Shown here: positions 5,127-57,456 of the stretch, one piece after another | Numbering within the stretch: the first letter of the stretch is position 1 | Layout: each line of letters opens with the position of its first letter | Origin: a virus | Lineage: Duplodnaviria > Heunggongvirae > Uroviricota > Caudoviricetes | Length of the DNA: 64,000 bases | Direction: 5' to 3' (one strand) | Virus record (IMG/VR): IMGVR_UViG_3300010383_000113 | Coordinates: 101,830-165,829 of that record | The notes under the pieces: model-generated | What the model was told of the DNA's origin: nothing | Database searches by the model: none | Seen by the model: only the letters and a program-made list of their open reading frames with translations | Made by a program: the position numbers and the translations under genes

Positions 5127-5471
5127 TTACCCTTCGGACTTGAGTTCTTCGACGCATGCCATGACGTCGCCCACCGTGAGGCTCCTCCCGAGGCCCAGGA
5201 CGGCCGCGTAGACCTCCTGGACGCTCAGGCCGCTGCCGGAGTCGGCCACGGCGTGCTTGACGATCCTGCGGACCTTCCAGCGGGCCAGGAGGCCGGGGTC
5301 GCGGCACTGCTCGACGGCCGACGCCGGGTACAACTGCCAGCACTCATAGGCCAGCAGGATGAGCTTCAGGATGGCGACCACCAGGACGACGTCGACCTGC
5401 TTGGGGGAATTCGAACCGCTGTCGGACGGAATCGACGCCAGGACTTGCGAGGCCAATCTTGTGATTGTCAT
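5127..5471 (-). CDS. hypothetical protein
   Basis: 114 aa ORF. Confidence 0.35.
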   Translation of the reverse strand: MTITRLASQVLASIPSDSGSNSPKQVDVVLVVAILKLILLAYECWQLYPASAVEQCRDPGLLARWKVRRIVKHAVADSGSGLSVQEVYAAVLGLGRSLTVGDVMACVEELKSEG

Positions 5472-6388
5472 TCAATCGCCACCTTAGTGCCCGGAATACA
5501 CCAGGACACATTGTCAGGAAAGAAACCACGGCTCAAATCTTTGCGTCTCAACCTAGCCTTGATATCAGGTGCATCTCCAACATCATTGAAAAACGCCATA
5601 ATGTCATCACGCCACGGTTGATGAACATCGATTCCGTTCTCTCGCGATCTCCTGAGCATCCCGTAGTAAGCGTGCCACTCCTTGGTATTCACTTTGTTGT
5701 GATCGGGCTTCAACAACAACGGCGTCGTCAGTGCCTCCTCGTCCGTCCAGCCATTCTTATGGCGGTTCCAGAGCACCTGATACGACACGCCGATTTCTTC
5801 CGCCCATTCCGACGCCGGCAGAGTCCTCCCGTTGTATGAGATGAACCAGGTGAGTTCTCTGTTGTTGGTGTTATCTCTCGGTGTTGACCAGGAGAGATTG
5901 TTCGGCATGCGGTTGGTCCGGCACCACTCGCAATCTCCGCAAGTATAAGATCCCGTATTGTCCCTCCGATCGATCTGATGCCGAGAGTCAGGTCTCGGAC
6001 CTACGACCTCAAGGAACTTGGCGAAGTCGTTTTTAATGCCGTCGCAAACCACCACGGGGATGGGAAGCCTTCCCCCATATCGATGGTAGGCATGGTGGTT
6101 GGGATTGCCACATCGTTCAAGGATCCCGTACCAAACTCCCCACTCCGGAGATTTTTCCTTACGTGTGGCATGTCCGTGTTTGGTATTTCGTCTGATCATC
6201 CTTTCCGACGTCAGGCACCCGCACGATCGAACATTTCCACGACGTAATTCACCGCCGGCCGACACATGCCAGGATTGCTTGGGGCAGGTACATCGACACA
6301 GCCAAACTCGATCGCCGTTCGACGCCCTGCCCCATTCTCTGACAACTTTCAGGCGGCCAAATTCGCGGCCGACCATCTCAATCATCAA
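5468..6388 (-). CDS. HNH homing endonuclease (HNH_3 type) with N-terminal DNA-binding domain
   Basis: HQIDRRDNTGSYTCGDCEWCRTNRMPNNLSWSTPRDNTNN (H-x-D..N..NL..N..N), NTKHGH..W..RC.NPN..Y..YGG; markedly lower GC than flanks. Confidence 0.65.
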   Translation of the reverse strand: MMIEMVGREFGRLKVVREWGRASNGDRVWLCRCTCPKQSWHVSAGGELRRGNVRSCGCLTSERMIRRNTKHGHATRKEKSPEWGVWYGILERCGNPNHHAYHRYGGRLPIPVVVCDGIKNDFAKFLEVVGPRPDSRHQIDRRDNTGSYTCGDCEWCRTNRMPNNLSWSTPRDNTNNRELTWFISYNGRTLPASEWAEEIGVSYQVLWNRHKNGWTDEEALTTPLLLKPDHNKVNTKEWHAYYGMLRRSRENGIDVHQPWRDDIMAFFNDVGDAPDIKARLRRKDLSRGFFPDNVSWCIPGTKVAIE

Positions 6389-20383: not shown

Positions 20384-20426
20384 GAAAAAAGCCGCAGAGG
20401 TCGTGCCCCTGCGGCTTGGTTCTTCA
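20384..20426. terminator. bidirectional rho-independent terminator between convergent genes
   Basis: AAAAAA-GCCGCAG-loop-CTGCGGC-TTGGTTCTT; a U-run follows the hairpin on both strands. Confidence 0.6.
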
Positions 20427-21194
20427 GTCGATGATCTCGGCGATGGCCACCTTCATGCTGGCGGCGGCGGTCTCGTAGGCCTCGGCCGACTCCTTGGGGT
20501 TCAGCTTGAGGCGGCGGCCGATCTTGGCGAGGGACTCGGGCTCCTCCCGGTCGATCCCGAAACGCCTCACGAGGAAGTAGCGTTCGGCGGGGTCGATGCG
20601 ATGGAGGCCGTCCCGGACCAGCTTCACGACGCCGTCGCAGCCGATGTCCGAGGGGTCGGCCTCGTCCTCGTCGGCCACGTCGAGCCTGGTGCCGTCCTCT
20701 CGCGGCGAGTGGAAGGAGGCCGTCTTGCGAGACGCCAGCACGGCCACGATGGCGTCGTACTCGTCCGACGACAGGTCGAAGGACGACATCGCCTCCTCCT
20801 TGGTCGGACGGCGGCCGTTCTCGTCCTGGAACCAGCGGACGAGCCGCTGAAACTTCAGGATGGTCTTGCTGGCGTGGACGGGGACGCGGATCAGGGTGCC
20901 GTTGCGATAGATCGCGTTCTGGATGGCCTCGACCACCCGGAACTTCGCGTGGGTGGAGAACCGGGCCTTGCCGGGGTCGAAGTCCTCGACGGCACGGCAG
21001 AGGCCCAGCATCCCTTCCTGCATCAGGTCCTCGCGTTCGACGCCGCGTCCGACATATGTACGGGCGACGGCCCGGACCAGGGGGATGTGCTTGGCGACCA
21101 GGTCGGCTTTCGACGTGGGCCGGCAGTTCGTGTCGGCTTCGACGCCGCAACCTTCGAAAAAACCACGTTCCTCTTCCAGCGTCAGGTAGGCCAT
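20424..21194 (-). CDS. sigma-70 family sigma factor (group 3-like)
   Basis: region 2 DLMQEGMLGLCRAVEDFDPGKARFSTHAKFRVVEAIQNAI; region 4 YFLVRRFGIDREEPESLAKIGRRLKLNPKE. Confidence 0.7.
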   Translation of the reverse strand: MAYLTLEEERGFFEGCGVEADTNCRPTSKADLVAKHIPLVRAVARTYVGRGVEREDLMQEGMLGLCRAVEDFDPGKARFSTHAKFRVVEAIQNAIYRNGTLIRVPVHASKTILKFQRLVRWFQDENGRRPTKEEAMSSFDLSSDEYDAIVAVLASRKTASFHSPREDGTRLDVADEDEADPSDIGCDGVVKLVRDGLHRIDPAERYFLVRRFGIDREEPESLAKIGRRLKLNPKESAEAYETAAASMKVAIAEIID

Positions 21195-21205: not shown

Positions 21206-21472
21206 TCAGGCGTGGATGTCGGTCAGGAGGTGGGGGAGGCGTTCGATCTGGTGGCCGTAGGTGCCGGTCTGCTCTTTCAGCGGGTCGACGATGACCAGGC
21301 GGACCTTCTGGTTGTCCGAACCGGGCTTGCCGGTGATCTTCCCGATGTAGATCTCGATGGGGCGTCCGGTCGAGGGGGGGACGAGTTCGATGCCTTCGTT
21401 CAGCTTCCGTTCGATGACGAGTGCCAAGCGGATTCTCCGTGCGTTCGATGCGTTTCCATGTGCGGTCTCCAA
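21206..21472 (-). CDS. hypothetical protein
   Basis: 88 aa ORF. Confidence 0.45.
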   Translation of the reverse strand: METAHGNASNARRIRLALVIERKLNEGIELVPPSTGRPIEIYIGKITGKPGSDNQKVRLVIVDPLKEQTGTYGHQIERLPHLLTDIHA

Positions 21473-21548: not shown

Positions 21549-21802
21549 TTAGGCGTGAAACGGCACGATGCAATAGGAATCTTCGAGATGTCCGCATGTC
21601 GATGCCAGTTCAGCCTTTCGGCAAGCCTCGCGGTAGGACGGGAATCGGGTGGCGGTGGCGGGGTCGGTCGTGAACCGGGTGCCCCAGACGTAGGAGGCGA
21701 TCGGGCGGCGGGGGTTGTCGACGCGGATGATGAGCGATTCGGCCATCGGGGTCTCCGGGTGAAAGTTCGGCGGACCCCTGTAATGTAGGACGAGCGGATC
21801 CA
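21549..21802 (-). CDS. hypothetical small protein
   Basis: ATGATG at about 21797-21802 lies 4 nt after GGAGCAGGGAGG; an alternative start MAESLII (about 21740) is preceded by CGTCCTACATT and GGAG. Confidence 0.35.
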
Positions 21803-22639
21803 TCATCCGGCCTCCCTGCTCCTCTGCCCTCCCCCTTTGGTCATGAGATGGTGACGGGCCAGGTCGAGGATCGTGATCGCCGCCGACTCCGGGAGGTCGG
21901 GGTGGACGATCTTCACCTCGACCGAGGCCTTGTACGCGGGCGTCTCGACGGGGATGATGAACTTGGAGACCTTGCCCTTCAGGAGGGTGGACTCCTTGGG
22001 GTTCTCGGCCCTGGCGACGCTGTAGGCTTTCGTCAGGCTGATCTTGCCCTCGATGAGCTGCTGCCTGGTCGTCTCGTTCAGCTTCAATATACTCAGCATC
22101 TTCGAGACGTGTCCGGCGGAAATCCCGATTTTCTTGGCGACCTGATCCTGGCTCATGCCGAGCTTGTCCATCATGGCCTTGTAGGCCTCGGCCTGCTCGA
22201 CCGGATTGAGGTCTTCGCGGGTGCAGTTCTCGATGAGCTGGTCGACCAGCAGGTTCCCGTCGTCCAGCTTGCTCGTCTCGATCAGGGCCTCGATCGCCGT
22301 CACGCCCGCCATCCGGCAGGCCTGCCAGCGACGCTCCCCGGCGATGATGACGTAGTGTTCGAGCAGGTCGTCCCACCGGACGCGGATCGCCTGGAGGAGC
22401 CCCCGGTCGCGGATCGTGTCGGCCAGGCGTTCGAGTTCGACCTGGTCGAATTGCTTGCGGGGCTGGTTCGGGTCCGGCTTGATCCGGTCGATCGGGATCA
22501 GGCCCGAGTTCTTGAGCTTCTTGACGCCCTGATGCTGGGCGGACCTGGCGGGGGCCGGCGTGGCGGCTTCGGCCGACGCGGCCTCTTCGAGCCCGGCCCC
22601 CATCGACTCGGCCATATGGTCTTCGTTGAACCTGCTCAT
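21803..22639 (-). CDS. parB: ParB partition protein
   Basis: IIAGERRWQA (ParB GERR box), HTH region; start MSRFNEDHMAESMG near 22639. Confidence 0.75.
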   Translation of the reverse strand: MSRFNEDHMAESMGAGLEEAASAEAATPAPARSAQHQGVKKLKNSGLIPIDRIKPDPNQPRKQFDQVELERLADTIRDRGLLQAIRVRWDDLLEHYVIIAGERRWQACRMAGVTAIEALIETSKLDDGNLLVDQLIENCTREDLNPVEQAEAYKAMMDKLGMSQDQVAKKIGISAGHVSKMLSILKLNETTRQQLIEGKISLTKAYSVARAENPKESTLLKGKVSKFIIPVETPAYKASVEVKIVHPDLPESAAITILDLARHHLMTKGGGQRSREAG

Positions 22640-23439
22640 GCCGCGATCTCCCCGTTTCCGTTCGTGAGGATGCGAAGCTCGATCTCGTTGGCGAGGTCCC
22701 CCACCGCCTCGTGGGCCGCCGACTTCTTCTTGAAGTGGCAGATGGGGGTCCGGCCGACCACGGCCTCCTTGAAGGCCGAGGCGTTGGGGATCGTGGTCAG
22801 CATCACCCGCTGCTTGTACGTGTTCCGGAGGAGTTGGTGGAACTTCTGGTGGACGGCCAGTTGGCGGTTGTATTGCGAGATGAGGTAGCCCAGGAGGGTG
22901 GGAGGGCCGCCCCGGATCTTCTGGGCCTTGGCGATGGCCTGGTTGACCTCGAAGATGCCCTGAGTGCCCAGGTCCTCGGGCTGGAGCGGCACCAGGACCC
23001 AGTCGCTCGCGATCAGGGCCGCGTGGGTCGTGAAGTCGAGCGACGGCCTCGTGTCGATGAGGACGTAGTCGTAGTCGTCGCGGACGTCGTCGAGGAAGTC
23101 CTTCAGCGACTCTTCGCCCTCGTGCCACTCCTCCTCGGCGGTCCGGTCACGCTTGATGACGTCGCGATGGCCGGGCAGCAGGTGGAGGTTGTCGAAGCCG
23201 GTCGGGTGGATCACGGACTCGTCGACGATCTCGTCCGAGTAGACCTGGTCGATCGACCGTTCGCGGGGCAGGGCGTGGAGGCCCTTCGGCCCCCAGAACA
23301 ACTGGGTGAGGCTCGACTGGGAGTCGTTGTCCACGACGAGGACTTTCCGGCCTCGTTGGGCCAGGACGCCCCCCAGGTGGAAGCAGGTGGACGTCTTGCC
23401 GACGCCCCCCTTGAGGTTCGTGACCGCGATGATGGGCAT
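22636..23439 (-). CDS. parA: ParA partition ATPase
   Basis: deviant Walker A KGGVGKTS, VDNDSQ; ATGA-coupled to parB. Confidence 0.8.
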   Translation of the reverse strand: MPIIAVTNLKGGVGKTSTCFHLGGVLAQRGRKVLVVDNDSQSSLTQLFWGPKGLHALPRERSIDQVYSDEIVDESVIHPTGFDNLHLLPGHRDVIKRDRTAEEEWHEGEESLKDFLDDVRDDYDYVLIDTRPSLDFTTHAALIASDWVLVPLQPEDLGTQGIFEVNQAIAKAQKIRGGPPTLLGYLISQYNRQLAVHQKFHQLLRNTYKQRVMLTTIPNASAFKEAVVGRTPICHFKKKSAAHEAVGDLANEIELRILTNGNGEIAA

Positions 23440-23549
23440 GACGATCGGGCTCCGGTTAGATGGTGATCACCACCCTTCTTATCGGAGCCGTGCCCGTGGG
23501 CCTGCAAGAAAAACGGGAGGAGCAGGGGGTGGTGTCGTCCCGGCCCCGT

Positions 23550-23728
23550 CTTTCTCGGAGAAAGTTGCCGGCCGCCCTCGCCGTCACGGTCCCCGGCGGG
23601 GCGATCTTTCCTCAAGAAAGGTCCGGCTGTGCGGCCTCTGATATGTTCGATCGACCCGTCTTTCTCGAAGAAAGATCGACCTGCGGCGTGCCGGCCGGCC
23701 CGTCGGACGACGCCTTTCTTGAGGAAAG
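23550..23728. repeat. centromere-like array: four 15-bp palindromes CTTTC-N5-GAAAG at about 55-bp spacing
   Basis: CTTTCTCGGAGAAAG (23550), CTTTCCTCAAGAAAG (23606), CTTTCTCGAAGAAAG (23660), CTTTCTTGAGGAAAG (23714); immediately upstream of parA. Confidence 0.6.
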
Positions 23729-23738
23729 ATCGCCCGTT

Positions 23739-23767
23739 CGCCCTCCCTGCTACGCGGCGAAGCCGCC
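23739..23767. repeat. motif-hairpin module CGCCCTCCCTGCTAC + GCGGCgaaGCCGC
   Basis: direct reading; flanks the parS array opposite GGAGCAGGGGGTGG at 23512-23530. Confidence 0.6.
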
Positions 23768-23780
23768 GAGGGTCGCGACC

Positions 23781-24311
23781 TCAGACGTGCTCGTAGATGT
23801 CGCCCAGGTCGAAGTGGCCGTAGACGACGCCGTCCAGGTCGATGGGCACCGGCTCGCCGGGACGGTAGTCCTTGACGCCTTCGAGCGAGGTTTCCTGGAG
23901 TACGCCCTCGATCGGGTCGATCATCCAGTGGGTCCTCAATCCGCTTCGAAGGTAGATTTGCCTGCCGACGACGATGCGTTCGTGATTCGATCGCGAGGCC
24001 ACGTCGATGACGAGCCCGGCGTCTTTGGCGTTGATCGCCCGATGGTCGGTCCCTCGGCAGACGAGGACGGCCGGCACGTAGACGTTGTAGGGGTCGCAGA
24101 AGACCCATTTCTCGCGATGCGACGCGGCCGTCCAGAGGGACGGGTCCAGGCTGTCTTCGACGAGGTGGACGAGGCGTTCCGCGATGGAGTCGACCGTGAA
24201 GCTCTGGAGCAGGAGGTGGGGGACGCCCCGGAAGAGTTCGACCTGGTTGCTCCGGGTCTCGTCCCTGTACCACCCCAGGCCGATCGTCTGGATGAATTGG
24301 CGGGCGTCCAT
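23781..24311 (-). CDS. Uma2-family (DUF820) putative endonuclease
   Basis: start MDARQF; DVASRSNHERIVVGRQIYLRSGLRTHWMIDP matches the Uma2 C-terminal pattern. Confidence 0.5.
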   Translation of the reverse strand: MDARQFIQTIGLGWYRDETRSNQVELFRGVPHLLLQSFTVDSIAERLVHLVEDSLDPSLWTAASHREKWVFCDPYNVYVPAVLVCRGTDHRAINAKDAGLVIDVASRSNHERIVVGRQIYLRSGLRTHWMIDPIEGVLQETSLEGVKDYRPGEPVPIDLDGVVYGHFDLGDIYEHV

Positions 24312-24340: not shown

Positions 24341-24803
24341 TCAGGTAGTCTCGACGCCGAACCTTAACTGGTGGTCGCTCAGGTCGCAGTAGCCCTTCAC
24401 CTTCGTGTGCTTGCATACGGCCCTCATGAAGTACCAGGCGTCGGCCTCGTGGGCCCGTTCGTCGTGCTCCATCCCGAGTCCCCGGAGGGCGTCGAGGCAC
24501 CTCTCCGTCAGACGATAGGCGGATTCGCCGGCAGCCGCAAGGCGAGGTACGGCCAGCCAGTCGTCCGGGGGGAGCCCGATCGGCCCCGGCTCCTCGGAGG
24601 CGGTGAGGACGACGCGGCCGTCCGGAAGCGGGATGAAGTCGAGGACCATCTTGGCGATGATCGTCCCGACGCGGAATTTTCTCGGGCCGTAGGGAGACGT
24701 GGCCGGTTCGGCGTAAGGCCCGACGACGGACTTGGGATCGAGCAGGCGGCCTCGACGATCGAAGGGGAGGGCGACCCCGCCGAGGTCGACGTAGCCCTTA
24801 ATG
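24341..24803 (-). CDS. hypothetical protein
   Basis: probable GTG start VTRIKGY overlapping the upstream stop. Confidence 0.35.
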
Positions 24804-25190
24804 CGTGTCACTGAGGTGCCCGATCGGCTGGAAGATGATGAGTTTCTGTCTGCGGACCGTCTTGCAAACCATGCTGAACGGCAAGGAGTCGACAGGGGCG
24901 GTCGTAAATGGGTGTACGGCCCGATCATGATCCGGGCCCAAGATCCAGCGAACGATCCCCTGGCCGTCGAGTTCCTTGAGCTTGGCTCGGTTGAGGCCGA
25001 ATTTGCTGTCGGTCAACAATTCCCCAACGCGATCGAAATCGAAACCCTCGGACACCCAGATCAGGGCGAACAGCGTTTCGTCTTCCTCTAGCAGTTCTAC
25101 CAGGTCGCCATAAGTCTTAAGCGGGTGGAGCATCTCGATCTCCGAAGGATTTCGTTCGTCACGGTGGCCCGTCGTCCCCACGAAGATCAT
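24798..25190 (-). CDS. hypothetical protein
   Basis: 130 aa ORF. Confidence 0.4.
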   Translation of the reverse strand: MIFVGTTGHRDERNPSEIEMLHPLKTYGDLVELLEEDETLFALIWVSEGFDFDRVGELLTDSKFGLNRAKLKELDGQGIVRWILGPDHDRAVHPFTTAPVDSLPFSMVCKTVRRQKLIIFQPIGHLSDTH

Positions 25191-25205: not shown

Positions 25206-26606
25206 CTAGCGGGGCGTGTTTCCCCGATTTTCCAGGATGTAGCGAATTATCTTCTCTCGCAGGGCTGCCGACTTCAGCGTCTTCCGCCATCCAGCCTTCC
25301 TCGGCTCCGCATGCTCATTATCAATATCTCTGAATGTCAGTTCAAGTTCGTTTTTGTAAAGTTCCTCGACTTTCTCGGTAATTTCACGTCGCACGGCATC
25401 CGACATCTTCGACCAGATCCTCTCGGCGACCGCTGAATCGTCGAGTTTTGACTCATGATTGGCACCATCCCGTCCGACATGAATAGTTGTACGCACCCGA
25501 GATGAGATGTCAACGGGCAGTCGGTGGAAACCTCCCGGAATCGCACGAACGACATATCCTGCCAGGCTTCTCTTGATTTCCCCTTTTGACTGCATTTCCC
25601 GTGCCACCTTCACGGTGTGCAGGATGTCGTCCTCGCGATGCTCGGCGGCCAGCTTCTCGGCGGCCTGGCGGGCGACACCGCACTCCAGCAGGGCCCTCAA
25701 CCCCTCGGAGGCGGGGGCCTGGACGGGGAGGGGAGGAGCAGGGGGGGTCGAGGGGAGGGTCGCATTTCCGGCCCGGACGACGACGCGGACGTCCCAACCC
25801 CCGTCGGGCCTCTTCCTATAACGCCCCTCGGGGCCGGGTTGTTCCAGGAATCCGACGGATTCAAGCTGTGCAAAACCCGGGCTGAGCTTCTGTTTGATCT
25901 GGCCGGCGTCGAGCTTTTCACGCCCCATCATCCCCATCTTGTCGAACGCGAAGCTCCGAAGGTCATAGGCCTGCTCCAGGGAGCCGACGTGGGCCTGCCT
26001 CCCGAGGTAGCGGAACATGTGCTTGGCGAGGGGCTTCGAAATCCGGCGATACGTCTCGAAGTCGAACTCGCGGACGTTGCCGGCCCGCAGGCTGTTGAAC
26101 ATCCGGCTGTCCCAGGTGACCTCGTAATACGATCGCCCCCTGCTCCCGGCCCCCTTGCCCTCCACGAAGTTGCCGATCACCTGGAAGTGGGCGTCCTCCA
26201 GCACGCCCGTCGTCTTGTTGAACCAGGCGTTCTTGAAGTCGAGCAGGACGAGCCGCCACAGGCTGATGGAGGCTTGCAACCTCTCATACGACCACCCCTG
26301 CTTCCTCCACCCTATCAACTTGATCATTTCCGTAGGGGTGAACGAGAATGCGGGCGTCTCAAATCCGTCGATCCGATGATGCAGCGTAATCAGACCCAGG
26401 ATCACTTCCTCGTCGACCGTGGACGGGAGGTTCAGGCTGCCGTTGACCGATATCGTGAAGGACCTGACGACGGGCTGGCCCGTGATCGGGTGCGGGATCC
26501 GGTCCTGGTAGGTCACGGACCTGGCCCCGACCATCTTCTCGCTCGCGGGGAAGCACATGGGGAAGTCCGACATGTTCAACTCGTCGCGGCCGGGGTCCGT
26601 CGTCAT
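25206..26606 (-). CDS. repA: replication initiator protein (RepA-like)
   Basis: 466 aa; sits directly between an AT-rich inverted repeat and an eight-copy iteron array, and next to parAB; assignment is by context plus weak family resemblance. Confidence 0.5.
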   Translation of the reverse strand: MTTDPGRDELNMSDFPMCFPASEKMVGARSVTYQDRIPHPITGQPVVRSFTISVNGSLNLPSTVDEEVILGLITLHHRIDGFETPAFSFTPTEMIKLIGWRKQGWSYERLQASISLWRLVLLDFKNAWFNKTTGVLEDAHFQVIGNFVEGKGAGSRGRSYYEVTWDSRMFNSLRAGNVREFDFETYRRISKPLAKHMFRYLGRQAHVGSLEQAYDLRSFAFDKMGMMGREKLDAGQIKQKLSPGFAQLESVGFLEQPGPEGRYRKRPDGGWDVRVVVRAGNATLPSTPPAPPLPVQAPASEGLRALLECGVARQAAEKLAAEHREDDILHTVKVAREMQSKGEIKRSLAGYVVRAIPGGFHRLPVDISSRVRTTIHVGRDGANHESKLDDSAVAERIWSKMSDAVRREITEKVEELYKNELELTFRDIDNEHAEPRKAGWRKTLKSAALREKIIRYILENRGNTPR

Positions 26607-26612
26607 CCGGGT

Positions 26613-26660
26613 CTCCTGTTGTTGATTCTTTTCGAAAGAACATCAAACAAACAACAGGAG
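26613..26660. promoter_or_regulatory. AT-rich inverted repeat at repA start (operator or DNA-unwinding element candidate)
   Basis: CTCCTGTTGTT..N26..AACAACAGGAG with internal TTCTTTTCGAAAGAA. Confidence 0.45.
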
Positions 26661-26710
26661 CGGACGTCACGATCCGCAAATGCCGTTTGTTCCGCTACTT
26701 ACGATGGACG

Positions 26711-26883
26711 CCTACTCGGTTTGACTCCAAATCCTACCCGGGATGACGCCAACCCTACCCGATTTGACTCCAGATCCTACTCGGGACGACTCCAAGCCTA
26801 CTCGGTTTGACTCTTGGGGTTCCTACCGCCTTTGACTCCAGACCTACCCGAGATGACTCCAAAGCCTACTCGGTTTGACTCCA
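26711..26883. repeat. iteron array: eight tandem 21-22 bp direct repeats, consensus CCTACYCGRKWTGACTCCA (putative oriV)
   Basis: direct reading; two-helical-turn periodicity; adjacent to repA. Confidence 0.7.
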
Positions 26884-26907
26884 GGGCGACGGCGTCCGAG
26901 AGCATGG

Positions 26908-45778: not shown

Positions 45779-46506
45779 TCAGGTGACGTTTGTGCGGCGT
45801 TTGTTCTCTACGATGAGTTTGATCGCCGCCGGGGAAACGCCGTATACTCGGGCGATTTCGGCCTTCCGACGGCCGTCCTGATAGAGTTTGCGAATTCCAC
45901 GTACGTCATCGTCCGAGAGTTTCTTCCTCGGTTGACCCTGAGCTTTAGGATTGGGCGTAGGACTGTAGTGAATGCCCGTGAGGCTGCTCCAGGATCTTCC
46001 TTTGATGATCGCGTTGATGGTGGTCGGGTCAACGCCAAAGAGAGCGGCGATTTGCTCCTGCGAAAGGCCCTCGTCTTTGTAGAGCCTGATGATTTCCAGG
46101 ACTTTATCAGGGTCGAGTTTTGCGTGGGGGTGGTGACCACCGGGTTGGAGGTAGTTGGTGCCGTGCTCGACCTGATCCTGGTAGTTCTCGGCCGGGCTAC
46201 CGTATTTGAGGTTGTCCAGTCTGTTGTTGGATGGATCCCCGTCGAGGTGCCGGATGAGCATCCCATCCGGTCTAGGCCCAACGTAAGTCAGGAGTACGAG
46301 TTCGTGGACGAAGAAGAAGTTCTTCCTCCCGAGTTCCACCCCGCGATGCCCCCTGTACTGGACGCTCTGCTTAAGCTGCTTCCAAGGCCCGGTGACGATA
46401 TGGTCTTTTCGTTTGTAGTGAAGGTTTGACCAAACGGTGCCGTCGTTGCCAACTCGGTAGTTGCTATAGCCGGGAACAAGGCGATACTCAACTCGAAATT
46501 CCACCG
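45779..46506 (-). CDS. HNH homing endonuclease (NUMOD4 + HNH_3 + C-terminal HTH repeats)
   Basis: YRVGNDGTVWS, HLDGDPSNNRLDNLKYGSPAEN; GTG start with AAGGAG; lower GC than flanks. Confidence 0.65.
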
Positions 46507-46680
46507 GCAGACGTCTCCTTGATGTTGAAGTGCATGGCCTGGGTGATGATCGGACCTTCGCAGTAGACCGAAAGGTCGATGGCGACCTTGACGGCGGCCT
46601 TGGGGTCGTGGCCGAGGTGCATGGCGGCCGTGGCGAAGTCGCAGCCGGCCCCGATGGCGTCGTACGCCAGGATCTCGTCA
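46507..46680 (-). pseudogene. C-terminal fragment of an HslV/proteasome-beta-like (Ntn hydrolase) gene
   Basis: NHCDGYYVDEILAYDAIGAGCDFATAAMHLGHDPKAAVKVAIDLSVYCEGPII aligns with the HslV C-terminus; N-terminal 100+ residues absent, in-frame stop upstream. Confidence 0.3.
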
Positions 46681-46795
46681 ACGTAGTAGCCGTCGCAGTG
46701 GTTTCAAAAGCTTCTTCGAAGCTTAACGGATGGGATCGGTAGGGAGTTTGAGGTGATACTCAAGTGATGGAACAACTCGGCCGGGAGGTCGACCT

Positions 46796-53585: not shown

Positions 53586-53634
53586 GAGGAGCAGGGAGGG
53601 CACGTCTCCACCCCCTGCTCCCCGACGAAGTCGG
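53586..53634. repeat. near-perfect inverted motif pair GGAGCAGGGAGGG-8nt-CCACCCCCTGCTCC plus hairpin CCGACgaaGTCGG
   Basis: direct reading; 12-13 bp potential stem. Confidence 0.65.
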
Positions 53635-53826: not shown

Positions 53827-54293
53827 TCATCCGCCCTCATCAGATTGATGCTGCGGTCGTTGTTGATCATGATCCGGAAGATGTCGCCGACTTGCGGGAG
53901 GTGGTCGAAGAAGACCCTGTCGGCGTGTTCTCGCAGGATCATGGTCCGGCCGTCCTTCAGGCCGCGAACTTCTACGACGACATCATAGGACCGGGCCTCG
54001 TGCTGCTTGTAATTGCCGTACTTGTAGACGTCGGTTTCGCCCAGGGCTCGAACAACTTCGACCAGGCCGTCGTTGCTCTTGGCATAGCCCTGAAGATTTG
54101 TCAGGACGGCCTGTTTCTTCAGGTGGTCGTTAACGGCCATGTAGCCGAACACAGTCAGAATCAGGAACAACGGGAGGAGTAAACCTCCCATCATCGTCCA
54201 GAAAAAGATCTGGGCGTCTTTGTCGGCGTCGGAGACGCCTCCCTTGGTGGTTCTGGTCGCATTCGAGATCGCCACCATCGCTGGTAGGTTCAA
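53823..54293 (-). CDS. membrane protein
   Basis: TM MMGGLLLPLFLILTVFGYM. Confidence 0.4.
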   Translation of the reverse strand: MNLPAMVAISNATRTTKGGVSDADKDAQIFFWTMMGGLLLPLFLILTVFGYMAVNDHLKKQAVLTNLQGYAKSNDGLVEVVRALGETDVYKYGNYKQHEARSYDVVVEVRGLKDGRTMILREHADRVFFDHLPQVGDIFRIMINNDRSINLMRADE

Positions 54294-56080
54294 GACTGGG
54301 CCCTCCTGCGGATCTCGGCGAAGGTCTCGTCGATCAGCAGGCGGCCATCGCGAAAGACTTCACGCATCTGGTCGTCCGGCTCGTTGATCGAGGCACAACG
54401 ATCCACCAGGCGGTAGTCGCCGTTCTCGTCGAGGACCACCTTAGTATATCCACGAGCTGATTTCTTGGTGCCGGAATCGGTCGCGGGATCCTTGAAGATC
54501 TCGCGGAACTCGCCGTTGACGATGCCGGCCGTGGACTTCACAGCGAAGCCGAAGGTGTCCCGAGTGACCATCTGATAGGTGTTGTGGGATAGGTAGCCGT
54601 TCGTGATGAACGTGCCACACGAGGTCTGAATGCCTGCGATCGGTTGTTTCCCGACGGGGTTGATCGAGGTGATCGTCGCCAGTTGGTAGGTCCTCCCTCT
54701 GGCCAGAGCGGGCATCTCTGCGGTAATCGCGTCGATCTTCTCCAGTAGTCGTTCGGGTCGTACCTGGCCGAGGAAGCGGAGTGTTTCTACCCATCCCCCC
54801 GTAAGGATGACGTGTTCGCACTTACGGTCAAGACGGTAGTACGTGAATTCTCGATCGTCGAGTCGGGCTTTGATTCGTTCCAGTGTGGGCGTTTGGTTTT
54901 GGGAGATGCTTACCTTCCATGACGGAATTCGATCCCCGGTGTTGCAGACACCAAGTCCTCCTTCGCCGTCGAACATGCCCGCAAGCCACCCGCCTTCGCG
55001 GGTATTGTCTGTTTCCCAGGGGTCGCATAGGTAGGCGATCTGATCGCCCACTTCGAGTTCGTAGGTTCGTTTCCAAACCAGGCCGGGATTTCGAGGGAAG
55101 TCCTTCGATGATTGGGCTTTGTTTGGGTCGAAGAAGACGTTGTTCTTACGGCGGCTTGGTGCGTAGACCAGCCAGGGATGGTCGTCGCTGGCGGTGATGT
55201 CTGGTCCGATATCGGTTGAGATCTGGGTCGAGAGTTTCGTGCCTGGATTGTTGTACTCGATGGTAGCCTTGCGGAATCGACGAGTGGCATGACGACCATT
55301 GTCGAAATTCGGATCCTCGTCGAACGCGATGATTTCCTGCCCGACTTTCAAATCACCGGCACGTCGCCAGATCAAATCGGCACACAAAATGAGAGTTTCG
55401 GGATGGACGCAATAGGAACCGACCCCAAACGTGATGTTCGAGGATGCGAACCCCTTTGCTTTCAGGCCCTCCAGGATGGCCTTGGCACGCTCCAGGGTGA
55501 TCGAGTCCCCATAAATCGTCCCGATGTGGCTGTCGAGGACTTTGTAGCCCTTGGAGTTGATGGTCCCGCCGAACGTCTGCCATAGCACGTCCAGGGTTCC
55601 CATCTCGGCGGGCTCGGGAATGGCGACATTCCAGTCAGAGATCCAAACCCGGGTCGCGACGCCCTGCTGGGCCTCGTACGAGCAGGTAAGGTCCCAGTAG
55701 ACGACCAGACCATCCTTGTCCACGCGAATGCGGTCGACGTACTTATGAGGCCGTCCGCCGACATGCAAGACCTCCTCGTTGATCTTGAACTTGGCTACAT
55801 CGCCGTGTTCCTGTATCGCTTGCTCGATCGACGAGTAGGTCCGGACTGGCTTTCCGCAGATCACTTCGACTGGACTGCCAGAATCTGGTCTCACTACAGT
55901 CTTCCCGTCGCGGGACATGATGACTTTCTTGAGACGTGGAAGGCTGTCTGATAGCACAGACCAGTAGTCGAATGAGTCAGACACCAGCGATACGATCCCC
56001 TTGGGATAAACGTTGGTGATCATGTGCTTGATGAAGGCGGTTTCAGACAGCAGTCGGTAGTTCGTCTCGAAACTCGTCAT
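54290..56080 (-). CDS. nicotinamide phosphoribosyltransferase-family protein, C-terminal half, interrupted by an intein
   Basis: LVSDSFDYW and RPDSGSP (NAMPT motifs) then GVGSY|CVHPETL...TASDDHPW...LAGMFDGEGGLG...ITNGYLSHN|T (intein blocks A, B, LAGLIDADG, terminal HN). Confidence 0.7.
   Translation of the reverse strand: MTSFETNYRLLSETAFIKHMITNVYPKGIVSLVSDSFDYWSVLSDSLPRLKKVIMSRDGKTVVRPDSGSPVEVICGKPVRTYSSIEQAIQEHGDVAKFKINEEVLHVGGRPHKYVDRIRVDKDGLVVYWDLTCSYEAQQGVATRVWISDWNVAIPEPAEMGTLDVLWQTFGGTINSKGYKVLDSHIGTIYGDSITLERAKAILEGLKAKGFASSNITFGVGSYCVHPETLILCADLIWRRAGDLKVGQEIIAFDEDPNFDNGRHATRRFRKATIEYNNPGTKLSTQISTDIGPDITASDDHPWLVYAPSRRKNNVFFDPNKAQSSKDFPRNPGLVWKRTYELEVGDQIAYLCDPWETDNTREGGWLAGMFDGEGGLGVCNTGDRIPSWKVSISQNQTPTLERIKARLDDREFTYYRLDRKCEHVILTGGWVETLRFLGQVRPERLLEKIDAITAEMPALARGRTYQLATITSINPVGKQPIAGIQTSCGTFITNGYLSHNTYQMVTRDTFGFAVKSTAGIVNGEFREIFKDPATDSGTKKSARGYTKVVLDENGDYRLVDRCASINEPDDQMREVFRDGRLLIDETFAEIRRRAQS
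54580..55410 (-). mobile_element. intein (about 277 aa) with LAGLIDADG homing-endonuclease-like domain inside the NAMPT C-half
   Basis: N-terminal Cys, TxxH block B, LAGMFDGEGG, C-terminal SHN followed by Thr; lower GC; coordinates approximate. Confidence 0.6.
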
Positions 56081-56663
56081 AGTACATCCAGATTAGTGGC
56101 TCGTTGGTTTCCGGGTGTTTGCCCGCAGATCTACATCCGTAGAGCTTACGACAAACCCGAGTCAAGTTGCCGCTGTCGATTCCGTATTTCTGAGCGGCTA
56201 ATCTAGCAGATTCAAAAACATCGCCTGTGTTCAATAGGACAACAGGCGTTGACTTGGGATTTTCCTTGCCTGTGCGTTTGCCCTTGTGGGCCTTGGATAG
56301 CTTCTCGCTGCGTTCCACGGTCGATTTCAGGAGATTGTTGTCCCATGCGTGTTGAATGTTCTCAGCGTGGGTCATCCACTCCAGGTTGCCGTGGTGGTTG
56401 TCGAGTTTGTTTCCGGACTTGTGGTTCACCTCCGGCTTATCGTCCGGATTTGGAACGAACAGGATCGCTACTAGCCGATGAATCCGAAGCGTTTTGCGTC
56501 GACCGTCGTCGCCTCGAAGAGTGATGACCGGATAGCCGTCCTCGTTGATTTGAACGGGAAGGTGCGATTCAGACTTTGTGTCGCACACTTCGCCGGAGTC
56601 GGATATCCGGTAGCGGCCGAACCCCTCATAGGTCTTCCAGGTTGATTCCGTTCCACGATCCAT
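56043..56663 (-). CDS. HNH homing endonuclease (NUMOD4 + HNH_3) inserted between NAMPT halves
   Basis: YEGFGRYRISDSGEVCD, EVNHKSGNKLDNHHGNLEWMTHAEN; about 50% GC; overlaps both NAMPT half-ORFs by about 37 nt. Confidence 0.7.
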   Translation of the reverse strand: MDRGTESTWKTYEGFGRYRISDSGEVCDTKSESHLPVQINEDGYPVITLRGDDGRRKTLRIHRLVAILFVPNPDDKPEVNHKSGNKLDNHHGNLEWMTHAENIQHAWDNNLLKSTVERSEKLSKAHKGKRTGKENPKSTPVVLLNTGDVFESARLAAQKYGIDSGNLTRVCRKLYGCRSAGKHPETNEPLIWMYYDEFRDELPTAV

Positions 56664-57456
56664 TGACGCGAAGGCTCTCCTCGATGTTGAAGATGTTGAG
56701 CGTGGCGACGCTGTGTTCCGTGGCTGGAACGCTTACGCCCACCACCTCCTGCTCCACATCCGCGTTGTAGTAGCTCTCGACCAGGTCGATGGCACAGATC
56801 GAGTCCGTCCCGATGAACGAAGTCAGGTGCCCCGCTCCGCTCATCGCCCCGTCTTCGAGCCCACTCAAACCACGCATCGAAAAATCGTGTGCCTGAGTGT
56901 TCAGATGGGCGTCCGAGTCGCAGGTCTCATCCGCGTACTTCTTGAGGAGCAGGCGGTAGTGCCTCGCCACCGTCGCGGAAGTCGTGGGCTTCCAGAGGTA
57001 GGCCGAGAGGGCCGTCTCCAGGAAGTTGGTCAGCCACGCGAAGTCCTCGTGGGTGTTGTAAAGAACCAGCACAGGGGTCTTCATCGGCACCTGACAGCCT
57101 TCGGGCAAGGCCTTGATGCAGATGGGCAGGTAGCCGAGGTCGTGGAGTTGTTCGATGTGGTCGGTCGGGACCGCGTCCTTGCCGAGGTAGGCGTCCATAC
57201 GACGCTTGAACCGCAGGACGACCTCTCGCTTGGGCCGCTGGAAGAAGCCGACGTCCCAGGTTTCCTGCAAGAACTCCTTCAGGAAGTATTGGAGGCCGAA
57301 GAACGTGACCTTCCCCGTCCACAGATCGTCGGGGATGTTCTTGAGGCGATCACTTCTAGGGGTCAGGTTGCTGTACACCATCGAGGTGCCGGCCGGGTAC
57401 TGCTGGCGGTGGCTCTGCTTGTAGCCGTCAGCACACGTCAGGGGGTTCTTAAGCAC
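56626..57456 (-). CDS. nicotinamide phosphoribosyltransferase-family protein, N-terminal half
   Basis: ADGYKQSHRQQYPAGTSMVYS, DFSMRGLSG, GAGHLTSFIGTDSI, VSVPATEHSVAT match the NAMPT N-terminal region; homology stops where the HNH insert begins. Confidence 0.7.
   Translation of the reverse strand: MLKNPLTCADGYKQSHRQQYPAGTSMVYSNLTPRSDRLKNIPDDLWTGKVTFFGLQYFLKEFLQETWDVGFFQRPKREVVLRFKRRMDAYLGKDAVPTDHIEQLHDLGYLPICIKALPEGCQVPMKTPVLVLYNTHEDFAWLTNFLETALSAYLWKPTTSATVARHYRLLLKKYADETCDSDAHLNTQAHDFSMRGLSGLEDGAMSGAGHLTSFIGTDSICAIDLVESYYNADVEQEVVGVSVPATEHSVATLNIFNIEESLRVNGSWNGINLEDL

Follow-up and report, generated by a model that had tools for sequence, protein, structure and literature searches.

A candidate non-canonical parS cluster upstream of parAB on a large phage-like element, with counterparts in Planctomycetota plasmids

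Four 15-bp palindromes of the form CTTTC-N5-GAAAG precede a parAB operon in the 64-kb window (i.e. the whole stretch of DNA analysed here). They probably constitute the cognate, non-canonical parS cluster of the adjacent ParB, together with which parA and parB would form a ParABS partition system; we put the probability of this reading at roughly 80%. It is supported by analogy with homologous operons that use different palindromes. The window covers 64 kb of a ~172-kb contig, and additional or better sites for ParB may exist in the remainder. The initial annotation had seen in these repeats a centromere-like array of ParB sites for the adjacent parAB, a core reading that is supported by the comparison with related operons (10 out of 10, see below).

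The parAB operon

Open reading frames confirmed that the array lies directly upstream of parA and parB, as initially annotated on the basis of the KGGVGKT and GERRWQA boxes. The two genes are:

22636 to 23439, minus strand: parA, 267 aa, deviant Walker A ATPase without N-terminal helix-turn-helix (HTH) extension
21803 to 22639, minus strand: parB, 278 aa, with ParB_N and HTH_ParB domains

The stop codon of parA overlaps the start codon of parB in the tetranucleotide ATGA (22636 to 22639), and both genes, on the same strand, form one operon. ParA matched domains AAA_31 (1.7e-40) and CbiA (3.3e-18) and was 38% identical to ParA of plasmid pPL62-2. Its Walker A motif KGGVGKT (residues 10-16, within NLKGGVGKTST at residues 8-18) lies right at the start of an ORF that cannot exceed 267 aa. 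Since ParA begins with the Walker A box and lacks a DNA-binding domain at its N-terminus, sequence-specific binding by this protein is unlikely, which argues against the earlier proposal of ParA as a possible binder of the array.

ParB displayed clear ParB_N (2e-21) and HTH_ParB (1.9e-18) domains and scored 133.8 bits against TIGR00180 (cut-off 58.45). It carries the boxes GERRWQA (residues 101-107) and ENCTREDL as well as a conserved N-terminal AESMGAG peptide, and its best solved relative was Caulobacter ParB (6t1f, E 1.9e-31). The third arginine of the GERRxRA box is a glutamine in this protein, whereas the Planctomycetota plasmid relatives display GERRWRA; the seven plasmid homologues aligned all have arginine at this position, as do nearly all of 40 others (one has lysine). 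Four features by which ParABS systems are recognized, namely a deviant Walker A ParA, a ParB with ParB_N and HTH domains, a single operon and adjoining repeated palindromes, were all found at this locus.

The palindrome array

The array occupies the region between parA and an upstream Uma2-like gene:

23440 to 23780, minus strand: non-coding region from the Uma2-like gene to parA, containing the four sites
23550 to 23564, no strand assigned: parS-like site 1, CTTTCTCGGAGAAAG, with a central G and 7-bp arms
23606 to 23620, no strand assigned: parS-like site 2, CTTTCCTCAAGAAAG, within the 23-nt arm 23599 to 23621
23660 to 23674, no strand assigned: parS-like site 3, CTTTCTCGAAGAAAG
23714 to 23728, no strand assigned: parS-like site 4, CTTTCTTGAGGAAAG, within the 23-nt arm 23713 to 23735

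All four palindromes reported initially (at 23550, 23606, 23660 and 23714) proved to be exact matches, and their period of 54-56 bp was likewise verified, with start-to-start distances of 56, 54 and 54 bp. They were the only CTTTC-N5-GAAAG matches in the 64-kb window and all fell in the 341-bp gap upstream of parA, at 111-290 bp from the gene. Shuffling gave an expectation of 0.08 per window, and none of 100 shuffles reached four. The check for further copies of the 15-mer that had been suggested yielded none besides these four in the window, even at one mismatch. The extended consensus of the four sites, read from the sequence, is YCTTTCYYNRRGAAAGR. Sites 2 and 4 are held by the arms of a perfect 23-nt inverted repeat (23599-23621 and 23713-23735).

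Spacers between sites were 39-41 bp long and their sequence was not conserved. Such fixed-length but non-conserved spacers fit selection on sites and spacing rather than recent duplication. Tandem duplication was also rejected as the origin of the array since TRF did not report any tandem repeat and no alignment was obtained between the spacers. The par promoter presumably lies in the same region (23440 to 23780), where no credible small ORF was found; a consensus scan of the intergenic region upstream of parA revealed no sigma-70-type promoter.

From the regular spacing it had been proposed that binding takes place on one DNA face. This does not hold, since at 10.5 bp per turn the four centres have phases of 0, 0.33, 0.48 and 0.62. 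The argument from regular phasing also loses its basis among the related arrays, which are spaced by 45-47, 24-36 or irregularly. A link with GATC and Dam was discarded as well: GATC adjoins three of the sites, but it occurs 9.5 times per kb window-wide, and four copies per 200 bp were seen in 12% of segments of that length.

Related parAB operons in Planctomycetota

The comparison set consisted of ten related Planctomycetota parAB operons, from seven plasmids and three metagenomic contigs. Each of the ten displayed its own short odd-length palindrome, in 2 to more than 10 copies, just upstream of parA, and most of these palindromes were 15 bp long with a 5-N5-5 organization:

pSINAC01: five copies of GTTAC-N5-GTAAC, spacing 47, 45, 47 and 35
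pPL62-3: TATAC-N5-GTATA, four copies within ~630 bp upstream of parA
pSINAC02: two copies of TGCAC-N-GTGCA
pK2D_1: two copies of GTTTC-N5-GAAAC
pPL62-2: three copies of GTTTC-N5-GAAAC
pEP7_02: four copies of GGTGnAnCGTnCACC, spacing 46, 47 and 45
pEP7_01: three copies of CTGCAC-N-GTGCAG
Three metagenomic contigs: TATAC-N5-GTATA or GATTC-N5-GAATC

A relationship was observed between palindrome and ParB recognition helix across the homologues, which supports the centromere-like reading put forward initially. Core identities between the seven plasmid ParBs and that of the window were 39-43%. Yet, the two ParBs associated with GTTTC-N5-GAAAC matched the window recognition helix at 9-10 of 17 residues, as against 3-5 of 17 for the five plasmid ParBs with unrelated palindromes. 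In ParB pairs that were 77% and 88% identical and had a common recognition helix, the palindrome was unchanged; the upstream DNA surrounding the palindromes had largely diverged in L009/L152 and partly in L153/L154. In L153/L154 and L011, the palindrome also occurred inside and downstream of parAB.

We define here a Planctomycetota plasmid ParABS clade to which, judged by sequence, the window system belongs, with the same site geometry. Like the Isosphaeraceae and other Planctomycetota plasmid operons, it combines a ParA of ~270 aa devoid of HTH, a Spo0J/HTH-type ParB and the AESMGAG peptide with replicon-specific odd-length palindromes upstream of parA (2-5 copies in the plasmids, mostly 15-bp 5-N5-5). 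A 'replication initiator protein A' gene is often adjacent and sigma-70 genes lie nearby, as they do here. The window system distinguishes itself by its half-site, which is CTTTC instead of GTTTC, GTTAC, TATAC, GATTC or TGCAC, and by a shorter ParB (278 aa versus ~300-315), which has ~40 linker residues fewer. Its carrier resembles a large phage rather than a metabolic plasmid. To our knowledge, the palindromic sites of these plasmids have not been described before. They are not mentioned in the comparative-genomics paper devoted to these replicons (PMC5352709).

Comparison with known partition systems

Canonical chromosomal ParABS systems involve the same protein families (ParBs of Caulobacter, Thermus and B. 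subtilis matched the window ParB with E 1e-28 to 1e-31), and have the CTPase boxes and a TTTC/GAAA-like half-site in common with the window system. Yet, the 16-bp canonical parS, TGTTNCACGTGAAACA, had no match in the window at up to three mismatches. The window site is 15 bp long with an odd centre (CTTTC-N5-GAAAG versus GTTTC-N4-GAAAC) and, unlike canonical chromosomal parS, its copies are clustered upstream of parA. Specificity of Caulobacter ParB was assigned to R173, T179, A184 and G201 (PMC7383237). The aligned residues in the window ParB are A, M, K and T, which fits a different target sequence.

Small ParAs are also typical of type Ib loci (TP228 parFGH, pB171, pSM19035), where a repeated centromere upstream of parA serves as operator too. 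The small ParA and upstream site array found here match this organization, but in type Ib the centromere is bound by small proteins of the ribbon-helix-helix type, which have no relationship to ParB/Spo0J, whereas the window protein is a full ParB_N and HTH_ParB protein. Type Ia is likewise excluded as an assignment by the lack of a ParA of ~400 aa with N-terminal HTH and of a centromere downstream of parB. In the type Ia system sopABC of plasmid F, the centromere sopC comprises twelve units of 43 bp, every one of which includes an inverted repeat of 16 bp (PMC9178275). It likewise consists of short inverted repeats placed at regular intervals, with one ParB dimer per repeat; however, sopC is found downstream of sopB and conservation extends over the entire 43-bp unit, while the window sites lie upstream and their spacers are not conserved. 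Moreover, SopA is a long ParA with an autoregulating N-terminal HTH, in contrast to the short ParA of the window.

An odd centre is also encountered in OB, the 13-bp palindromic site of KorB. This RK2 protein, a CTPase clamp of the ParB family, loads onto short palindromic sites close to promoters and thereby acts as a transcriptional repressor (PMC11790492). KorB was a weak PDB match of the window ParB (8qa8, E 6e-11). It acts together with KorA, and its dozen or so sites are scattered across the plasmid, whereas four sites are clustered at one promoter here and no KorA-like partner was identified.

Replication module and nature of the element

A replication module was found close to the par locus:

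25206 to 26606, minus strand: repA-like replication initiator gene (PF10134 at 25.8 bits, below the cut-off of 27)
26711 to 26886, no strand assigned: eight direct 21-22-bp iterons, CCTACyCGnnwTGACTCCAr, directly upstream of repA; putative origin

The RepA protein was 26-28% identical (E 5e-42 and 5e-44) to the 'replication initiator protein A' of pPL62-2 and pSINAC01. The putative iteron-RepA origin lies ~3 kb from the palindrome array, and the 15-mers are 1.4 kb from repA. The best reading of this ensemble is a plasmid-type maintenance module, composed of iteron-RepA and ParABS, of a ~172-kb phage-like element. The joint presence of origin and partition module suggests that this element persists as a low-copy extrachromosomal replicon.

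Genes typical of phages in the window code for RNR, ThyX, dUTPase, NAMPT (split by an HNH) and PRPP synthetase, while none of the ORFs scanned in 64 of the ~172 kb codes for capsid, portal, terminase or tail proteins. We infer the phage identity of the element from this gene content alone. Phage-plasmids such as P1 (parABS) and N15 (sopAB) are phage-like genomes that have their own replication initiator together with a ParABS system, by which they are maintained as plasmids (reviewed in PMC11652158). The parS of P1 has its box A and box B motifs arranged about an IHF site, and the sites of N15 are dispersed. The window element appears similar in this respect, although the two known systems have a type Ia ParA, another site architecture and hosts from another phylum.

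Taken as a whole, the data allow a broader but tentative reading, to which we give somewhat less than even credence: the ~172-kb element may be a Planctomycetota phage-plasmid, with a probably Isosphaeraceae-like host, that captured an iteron-RepA/ParABS module of host-plasmid type. As parts of the same reading, and as tentative as the whole, its ParB may belong to a previously undescribed clade with odd-length, mostly 15-bp 5-N5-5 palindromes, in which one extra base separates the half-sites by comparison with canonical parS, and a code may relate recognition helix to half-site, covering CTTTC, GTTTC, GTTAC, TATAC and GATTC.

Alternative explanations

An operator-only role of the palindromes, used by a KorB-like ParB or another repressor while the centromere lies elsewhere on the 172-kb element, is unlikely. 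The four sites are located in the promoter-leader region of parA, several homologues have their nearest site just 20-50 bp from the parA start codon, ~108 kb of the ~172-kb element lie outside the 64-kb window scanned, and KorB offers the precedent of a ParB-family CTPase that represses promoters from its loading sites (PMC11790492). Against it, the window contained neither additional copies of the motif nor canonical parS, and palindromes located inside and downstream of parAB, as in L153/L154 and L011, are what parS clusters typically show, as opposed to a single operator. Since dual use of sites as centromere and operator is common, this reading overlaps with the parS interpretation more than it competes with it. 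It is very improbable that the sites are bound not by ParB but by another regulator, for instance a small protein encoded nearby or a phage repressor, with the parAB adjacency being incidental. Four neighbouring ORFs without recognisable family (24798-25190, 24341-24928, 21549-21800 and 21206-21472) could be thought of as its source; however, no DNA-binding domain was detected in them, the layout of palindromes before parA recurs in ten homologous operons despite differing neighbour genes, and palindrome sequence tracks the ParB recognition helix.

Two further readings have next to no likelihood. The 15-mers might be RepA iterons, origin repeats or a generic dispersed repeat of host or element, as their regular spacing 1.4 kb from repA could suggest. 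Yet, iteron origins are made of tandem direct repeats (~17-22 bp) whereas the 15-mers are palindromes in mixed orientation, confined within the window to the par locus, and look-alike arrays elsewhere turned out to be unrelated tandem, REP-like or coding repeats without par genes nearby. Moreover, true iterons occur separately, immediately upstream of repA (26711-26886), so that the 15-mers are not iterons and are not needed as origin repeats. Equally improbable is a role of the region as folded leader RNA or as cruciform DNA, in either case through pairing of the inverted arms around sites 2 and 4, in place of protein sites. The sense RNA 23430-23785 does fold to -173.5 kcal/mol versus -148.9 for shuffled sequences (z = -4.2), a fold driven by the perfect 23-nt inverted repeat, but excess stability is expected from any palindrome array in alternating orientation, single 5-bp CUUUC/GAAAG stems are weak, and homologues retain the palindromes but neither the long-range pairing nor the spacing.

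Proposed mechanism and significance

Returning to the preferred parS interpretation, the mechanism is most likely standard ParABS biology, i.e. a familiar system with an unusual site sequence, and would as such be unsurprising to a specialist. By reference to the ParB/Spo0J CTPase family, each palindrome would serve as nucleation site for a ParB dimer, which would bind by way of its helix-turn-helix. The N-terminal gate would close upon CTP binding, and the closed clamps would slide to flanking DNA, giving rise to the partition complex. The conserved N-terminal ParB peptide would then stimulate nucleoid-bound ParA-ATP, and the resulting ParA gradient would separate sister copies of the element. 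Given the position of the sites, with the upstream gene on one side and the parA start on the other, loading of ParB probably represses parAB transcription, and the centromere would thereby double as par operator.

If confirmed, the system would bring to light a ParB/parS pair whose 15-bp site is odd-centred and non-canonical and, more broadly, a clade of Planctomycetota replicons that have this geometry in common and differ by replicon-specific half-sites, which bears on the evolution of ParB specificity and on plasmid incompatibility. Orthogonal ParB/parS pairs are useful DNA-labelling tools, and a helix-to-half-site code, if true, would yield a natural set of them. Confirmation would also provide evidence for a large phage-like Planctomycetota element maintained as a plasmid. 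Few phages or phage-plasmids of Planctomycetota have been described; a full-text search combining 'phage-plasmid' and 'Planctomycet' gave none on the subject among the matches listed, judged by title and abstract.

Searches for relatives and flanking motifs

None of the collections searched contained a ParB relative with more than 48% identity. The best relative in IMG/VR viral contigs was 42% identical, those in INPHARED phages were all below 60% (best ~42%), and a set of 5.8 billion proteins contained only the window ParB itself, on a 171,667-bp JGI contig, followed by matches of at most 48%. Scans for two-site patterns were equally devoid of par-linked arrays: viral contigs gave one chance match in AT-rich coding DNA, none of 107 loci in reference genomes had a ParA or ParB relative within 8 kb, and none of 27 metagenomic loci was par-linked. 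Among look-alikes, an array of TTTC-N5-GAAA palindromes beside an Arc/RHH-like gene in viral contigs (L008) was unrelated, and two loci with 54-bp spacing and identical 15-mers (L141 and L143) belonged to an 18-residue coding tandem repeat (...RKLSSRKK...).

The array is flanked on both sides by further motifs:

23519 to 23532, plus strand: copy of motif GGAGCAGGGGGTGG, window-wide and not par-specific
23739 to 23766, plus strand: CGCCCTCCCTGCTAC (23739-23753) followed by hairpin GCGGC-GAA-GCCGC, a window-wide intergenic module, not par-specific

The hairpin module was correctly placed at 23739 in the initial annotation, while the GGAGCAGGGGGTGG copy, assigned there to 23512, actually occupies 23519-23532. 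Pairing between the two motifs was absent from the predicted RNA fold. Nor are these inverted copies, as had been assumed, a bracketing feature of the par locus: their motif family is present in 27 and 29 copies in the window, versus ~1-2 expected, and in front of many genes a sense-oriented copy immediately precedes the start codon, in the manner of an extended Shine-Dalgarno element.

A partition operon and its upstream palindromes

The ParABS system described here is intact, and sequence comparison indicated that the four palindromes upstream of parA are very probably its cognate parS cluster. The locus was ordered iterons, repA, three small genes, four palindromes, parA and parB, with the following features (window positions):

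21803-22639, minus strand: parB, 278 aa, ParB_N and HTH_ParB domains
22636-23439, minus strand: parA, 267 aa, AAA_31 and CbiA matches
25206-26606, minus strand: repA-like ORF, weak Pfam RPA match, three kb upstream
26711-26886: iterons, eight copies of a 21-22-bp direct repeat (CCTACyCGnnwTGACTCCAr) just upstream of the repA-like gene

The deviant Walker A box NLKGGVGKT stood at the very start of ParA, whose ORF was at maximal length, no longer version being possible; this ParA thus lacks an N-terminal DNA-binding extension. ParB, whose gene overlapped the parA stop as ATGA, scored above the NCBIfam TIGR00180 cut-off (133.8 bits vs 58.45) and had Caulobacter ParB (6t1f, E 1.9e-31) as closest solved relative. 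It displayed the CTPase boxes GERRWQA and ENCTREDL, as well as an N-terminal peptide, AESMGAG, that was conserved clade-wide in the alignment. The CTP-binding GERRWQA box covered residues 101-107 (window 22319-22339); its Q position was occupied by R in all seven aligned plasmid homologues and in nearly all of 40 others, K occurring in one; the difference may bear on CTP binding or hydrolysis. At 0.6 kb downstream of parB (20424-21194, minus strand), a gene encoded an RpoD/RpoS-like protein of the sigma-70 family (region 2; about 100-114 bits, under every equivalog cut-off), and sigma-70 genes likewise occurred near parAB in plasmids pSINAC01 and pEP7_02.

The palindrome CTTTC-N5-GAAAG was found at 23550, 23606, 23660 and 23714 (sites 1-4; start-to-start distances of 56, 54 and 54 bp), in agreement with the initial annotation. 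Dinucleotide-preserving shuffles of the window yielded a mean of 0.08 and a maximum of one; the array is a real, non-random feature. The 64-kb window contained no further copy of the 15-mer, and allowing one mismatch added none. All eight half-site arms fitted RR-GAAAG-R, with a 17-bp consensus YCTTTCYYNRRGAAAGR. The spacers (39-41 bp) were mutually unalignable and Tandem Repeats Finder reported no tandem repeat in the array, which rules out a recent tandem duplication as its origin; the array therefore comprises four palindromes conserved at set intervals, with no conservation of the DNA between them. The constant length of the spacers is notable and may result from steric spacing between neighbouring ParB dimers. 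The previously proposed location of the sites on one DNA face did not hold, the centre phases being 0, 0.33, 0.48 and 0.62 at 10.5 bp per turn, nor was it supported by homologous arrays, whose spacings differ.

A perfect 23-nt inverted repeat (23599-23621 / 23713-23735) enclosed sites 2 and 4 and dominated the predicted RNA fold of the array region (z = -4.2). No credible ORF was found in the 341-bp gap at 23440-23780, and scanning the gap upstream of parA for sigma-70-type promoter consensus gave no match.

Palindromes in related operons

The exact ParB sequence was recorded on a single 171,667-bp JGI contig, of which the window represents 64 kb. Among 5.8 billion proteins the next-best match was at most 48% identical; the best matches reached 42% in IMG/VR viral contigs and about 42% in INPHARED phages, where every match was below 60%. 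Since no close relative was available for motif conservation, upstream architecture was compared instead in the nearest homologues, namely seven Planctomycetota plasmid parAB operons and three metagenomic relatives. All seven plasmid operons retrieved displayed their own short odd-length palindrome arrays upstream of parA, and in several homologues the nearest site lay 20-50 bp from the parA start codon.

Palindromes upstream of parA in plasmid operons
pSINAC01: GTTAC-N5-GTAAC, 5 copies, 47, 45, 47 and 35 bp apart
pPL62-3: TATAC-N5-GTATA, 4 copies in the 630 bp or so preceding parA and additional ones beyond
pSINAC02: TGCAC-N-GTGCA, 2 copies, and another 2 close to the junction of parA and parB
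pK2D_1: GTTTC-N5-GAAAC, 2 copies
pPL62-2: GTTTC-N5-GAAAC, 3 copies
pEP7_02: GGTGnAnCGTnCACC, 4 copies, 46, 47 and 45 bp apart
pEP7_01: CTGCAC-N-GTGCAG, 3 copies, plus 1 near the parA end

Metagenomic contig L152 encoded a ParB 77% identical to that of pPL62-3, with the same recognition helix, and carried the same TATAC-N5-GTATA upstream of parA, while the remaining upstream DNA had diverged. In the Planctomycetota-like contigs L153 and L154, whose ParBs were 88% identical to each other, GATTC-N5-GAATC arrays occurred within parAB as well as on both sides of it. Upstream of parA, five copies were counted in L153 and at least ten in L154; others lay at matching positions in parA (2341), parB (about 3105 and 3495) and downstream (about 3991), a layout resembling a spread-out parS cluster.

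Recognition helix and probable cognate sites

Over the conserved core, identity between the window ParB and the seven plasmid ParBs was 39-43%. The recognition-helix segment of the window ParB (residues 171-187, IGISAGHVSKMLSILKL) was matched at 9-10 of 17 positions by the two ParBs associated with GTTTC-N5-GAAAC, but at only 3-5 by the five with unrelated palindromes. In Caulobacter, ParB specificity for parS versus NBS is set by R173, T179, A184 and G201 (Jalal et al. 2020, PMC7383237); alignment placed A175, M181, K186 and T203 at these positions in the window ParB. No canonical parS was found across the window with up to three mismatches. Shared architecture, together with the association of same helix with same palindrome and of similar helix with similar palindrome, argues that the palindromes are the cognate ParB sites. 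In the present data set, the odd-length 5-N5-5 geometry appears to be a clade feature.

That the palindromes serve as operator only is improbable, and this possibility overlaps with the cognate parS assignment. Binding by a regulator other than ParB is unlikely, since no neighbouring ORF displayed a DNA-binding domain and the palindromes recur upstream of parA beside different neighbour genes. The 15-mers are not iterons, a separate iteron array being present upstream of repA, nor a generic repeat, the motif being unique to the par locus within the window. Look-alike arrays in genomes and metagenomes lacked par genes and proved to be unrelated repeats of tandem, REP-like or coding type. In viral contig L008 (IMGVR_UViG_3300031842_000031), at least seven different xTTTC-N5-GAAAx palindromes were densely arrayed (5730-5930, about 30-bp spacing) directly downstream of an Arc/MetJ-like ribbon-helix-helix protein gene; this array is unrelated to ParB and may serve as a regulatory or centromere region of a phage.

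As probable cognate parS sites, the palindromes fall within ordinary ParABS biology. By analogy with established ParB-CTPase/ParA systems, one ParB dimer would nucleate per palindrome and be converted by CTP-dependent gate closure into a sliding clamp, clamps building up around the array. The AESMGAG peptide would activate nucleoid-bound ParA-ATP, and the ensuing ParA gradient would move sister copies apart. The array probably also autoregulates the parAB operon, because it sits in the parA leader-promoter region; KorB provides a precedent for ParB-family clamps controlling promoters (PMC11790492).

The locus shares its protein type (short ParA with HTH ParB-CTPase) with chromosomal/Spo0J systems and its centromere placement with type Ib plasmids. 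Like F sopC, whose twelve units of 43 bp each hold an inverted repeat of 16 bp (PMC9178275), it displays a regular array of spaced inverted repeats; sopC differs by its downstream location, fully conserved units and long ParA partner. Compared with canonical parS, the TTTC/GAAA-type half-sites of the 5-N5-5 palindrome are separated by one additional base pair. The closest relatives are plasmid loci from Isosphaeraceae; the palindromic sites of these loci were unmentioned in a comparative-genomics paper on the plasmids (PMC5352709). The locus is of modest interest for its non-canonical site, for a relation between recognition helix and half-site that extends across the clade, and for a hint of phage-plasmid lifestyle in Planctomycetota.

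A window-wide motif family

The inverted motif copies initially described as bracketing the array (23519-23532, rather than from 23512, and from 23739) both belong to a window-wide family, [GT][GT]AGCAGGG[AG]G[GT]GG, and no pairing between them appeared in the predicted RNA fold. CCCTCCCTGCT occurred 27 times in the window (2.1 expected) and GGAGCAGGGGGTGG, with up to two mismatches, 29 times (1.0 expected). The family totalled about 50 copies against 1-2 expected, for example at 21810, 23741, 27975, 30904, 33573, 35814, 43901, 44353 and 52194 (plus strand) and 8422, 48654, 49258, 53608 and 63427 (minus strand). In gene direction, copies were usually located 3-8 nt ahead of a start codon, so that the motif looks like an extended Shine-Dalgarno element; a GC hairpin (CCGCC-N4-GGCGG) frequently stood ahead of them, and one copy serves the gene that follows parB. 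At other start codons, the reverse orientation (CCCTCCCTGCTAC/CTCC) lay about 17-40 nt upstream, and both orientations formed a hairpin at 53598-53621. The family may be an element-specific translation-control or transcript-processing signal.

Replication module and phage-like context

The repeats at 26711-26886 are a classical iteron array. In pairwise comparison the repA-like product was clearly homologous to 'replication initiator protein A' as encoded by two Isosphaeraceae plasmids, at 26-28% identity (E 5e-42 and 5e-44). The stretch between iterons and gene (about 26620-26700) was more AT-rich, and together they look like an iteron-type origin. Palindromes and parAB belong to a plasmid-type iteron-RepA/ParABS maintenance module of a large phage-like element. 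Nearly all window genes lay on one strand, and they included ribonucleotide reductase, ThyX, dUTPase, DNA methyltransferase, PRPP synthetase, an HNH-interrupted nicotinamide phosphoribosyltransferase, further HNH genes and the sigma-70 family protein; no structural gene was matched among the ORFs scanned in the 64 kb.

Large phages typically carry a homing-endonuclease load of this kind. The nicotinamide phosphoribosyltransferase was apparently split (54290-57456) into an N-terminal half (ORF 56626-57456) and an ORF with the remainder plus an HNH endonuclease segment (54290-56080); free-standing HNH genes occurred at 5468-6388 and 45779-46681. G+C content was 62-67% over about 8-26 kb, including ThyX, the sigma factor, parAB and repA, and 57-61% elsewhere; this compositional step could mark a region of different origin.
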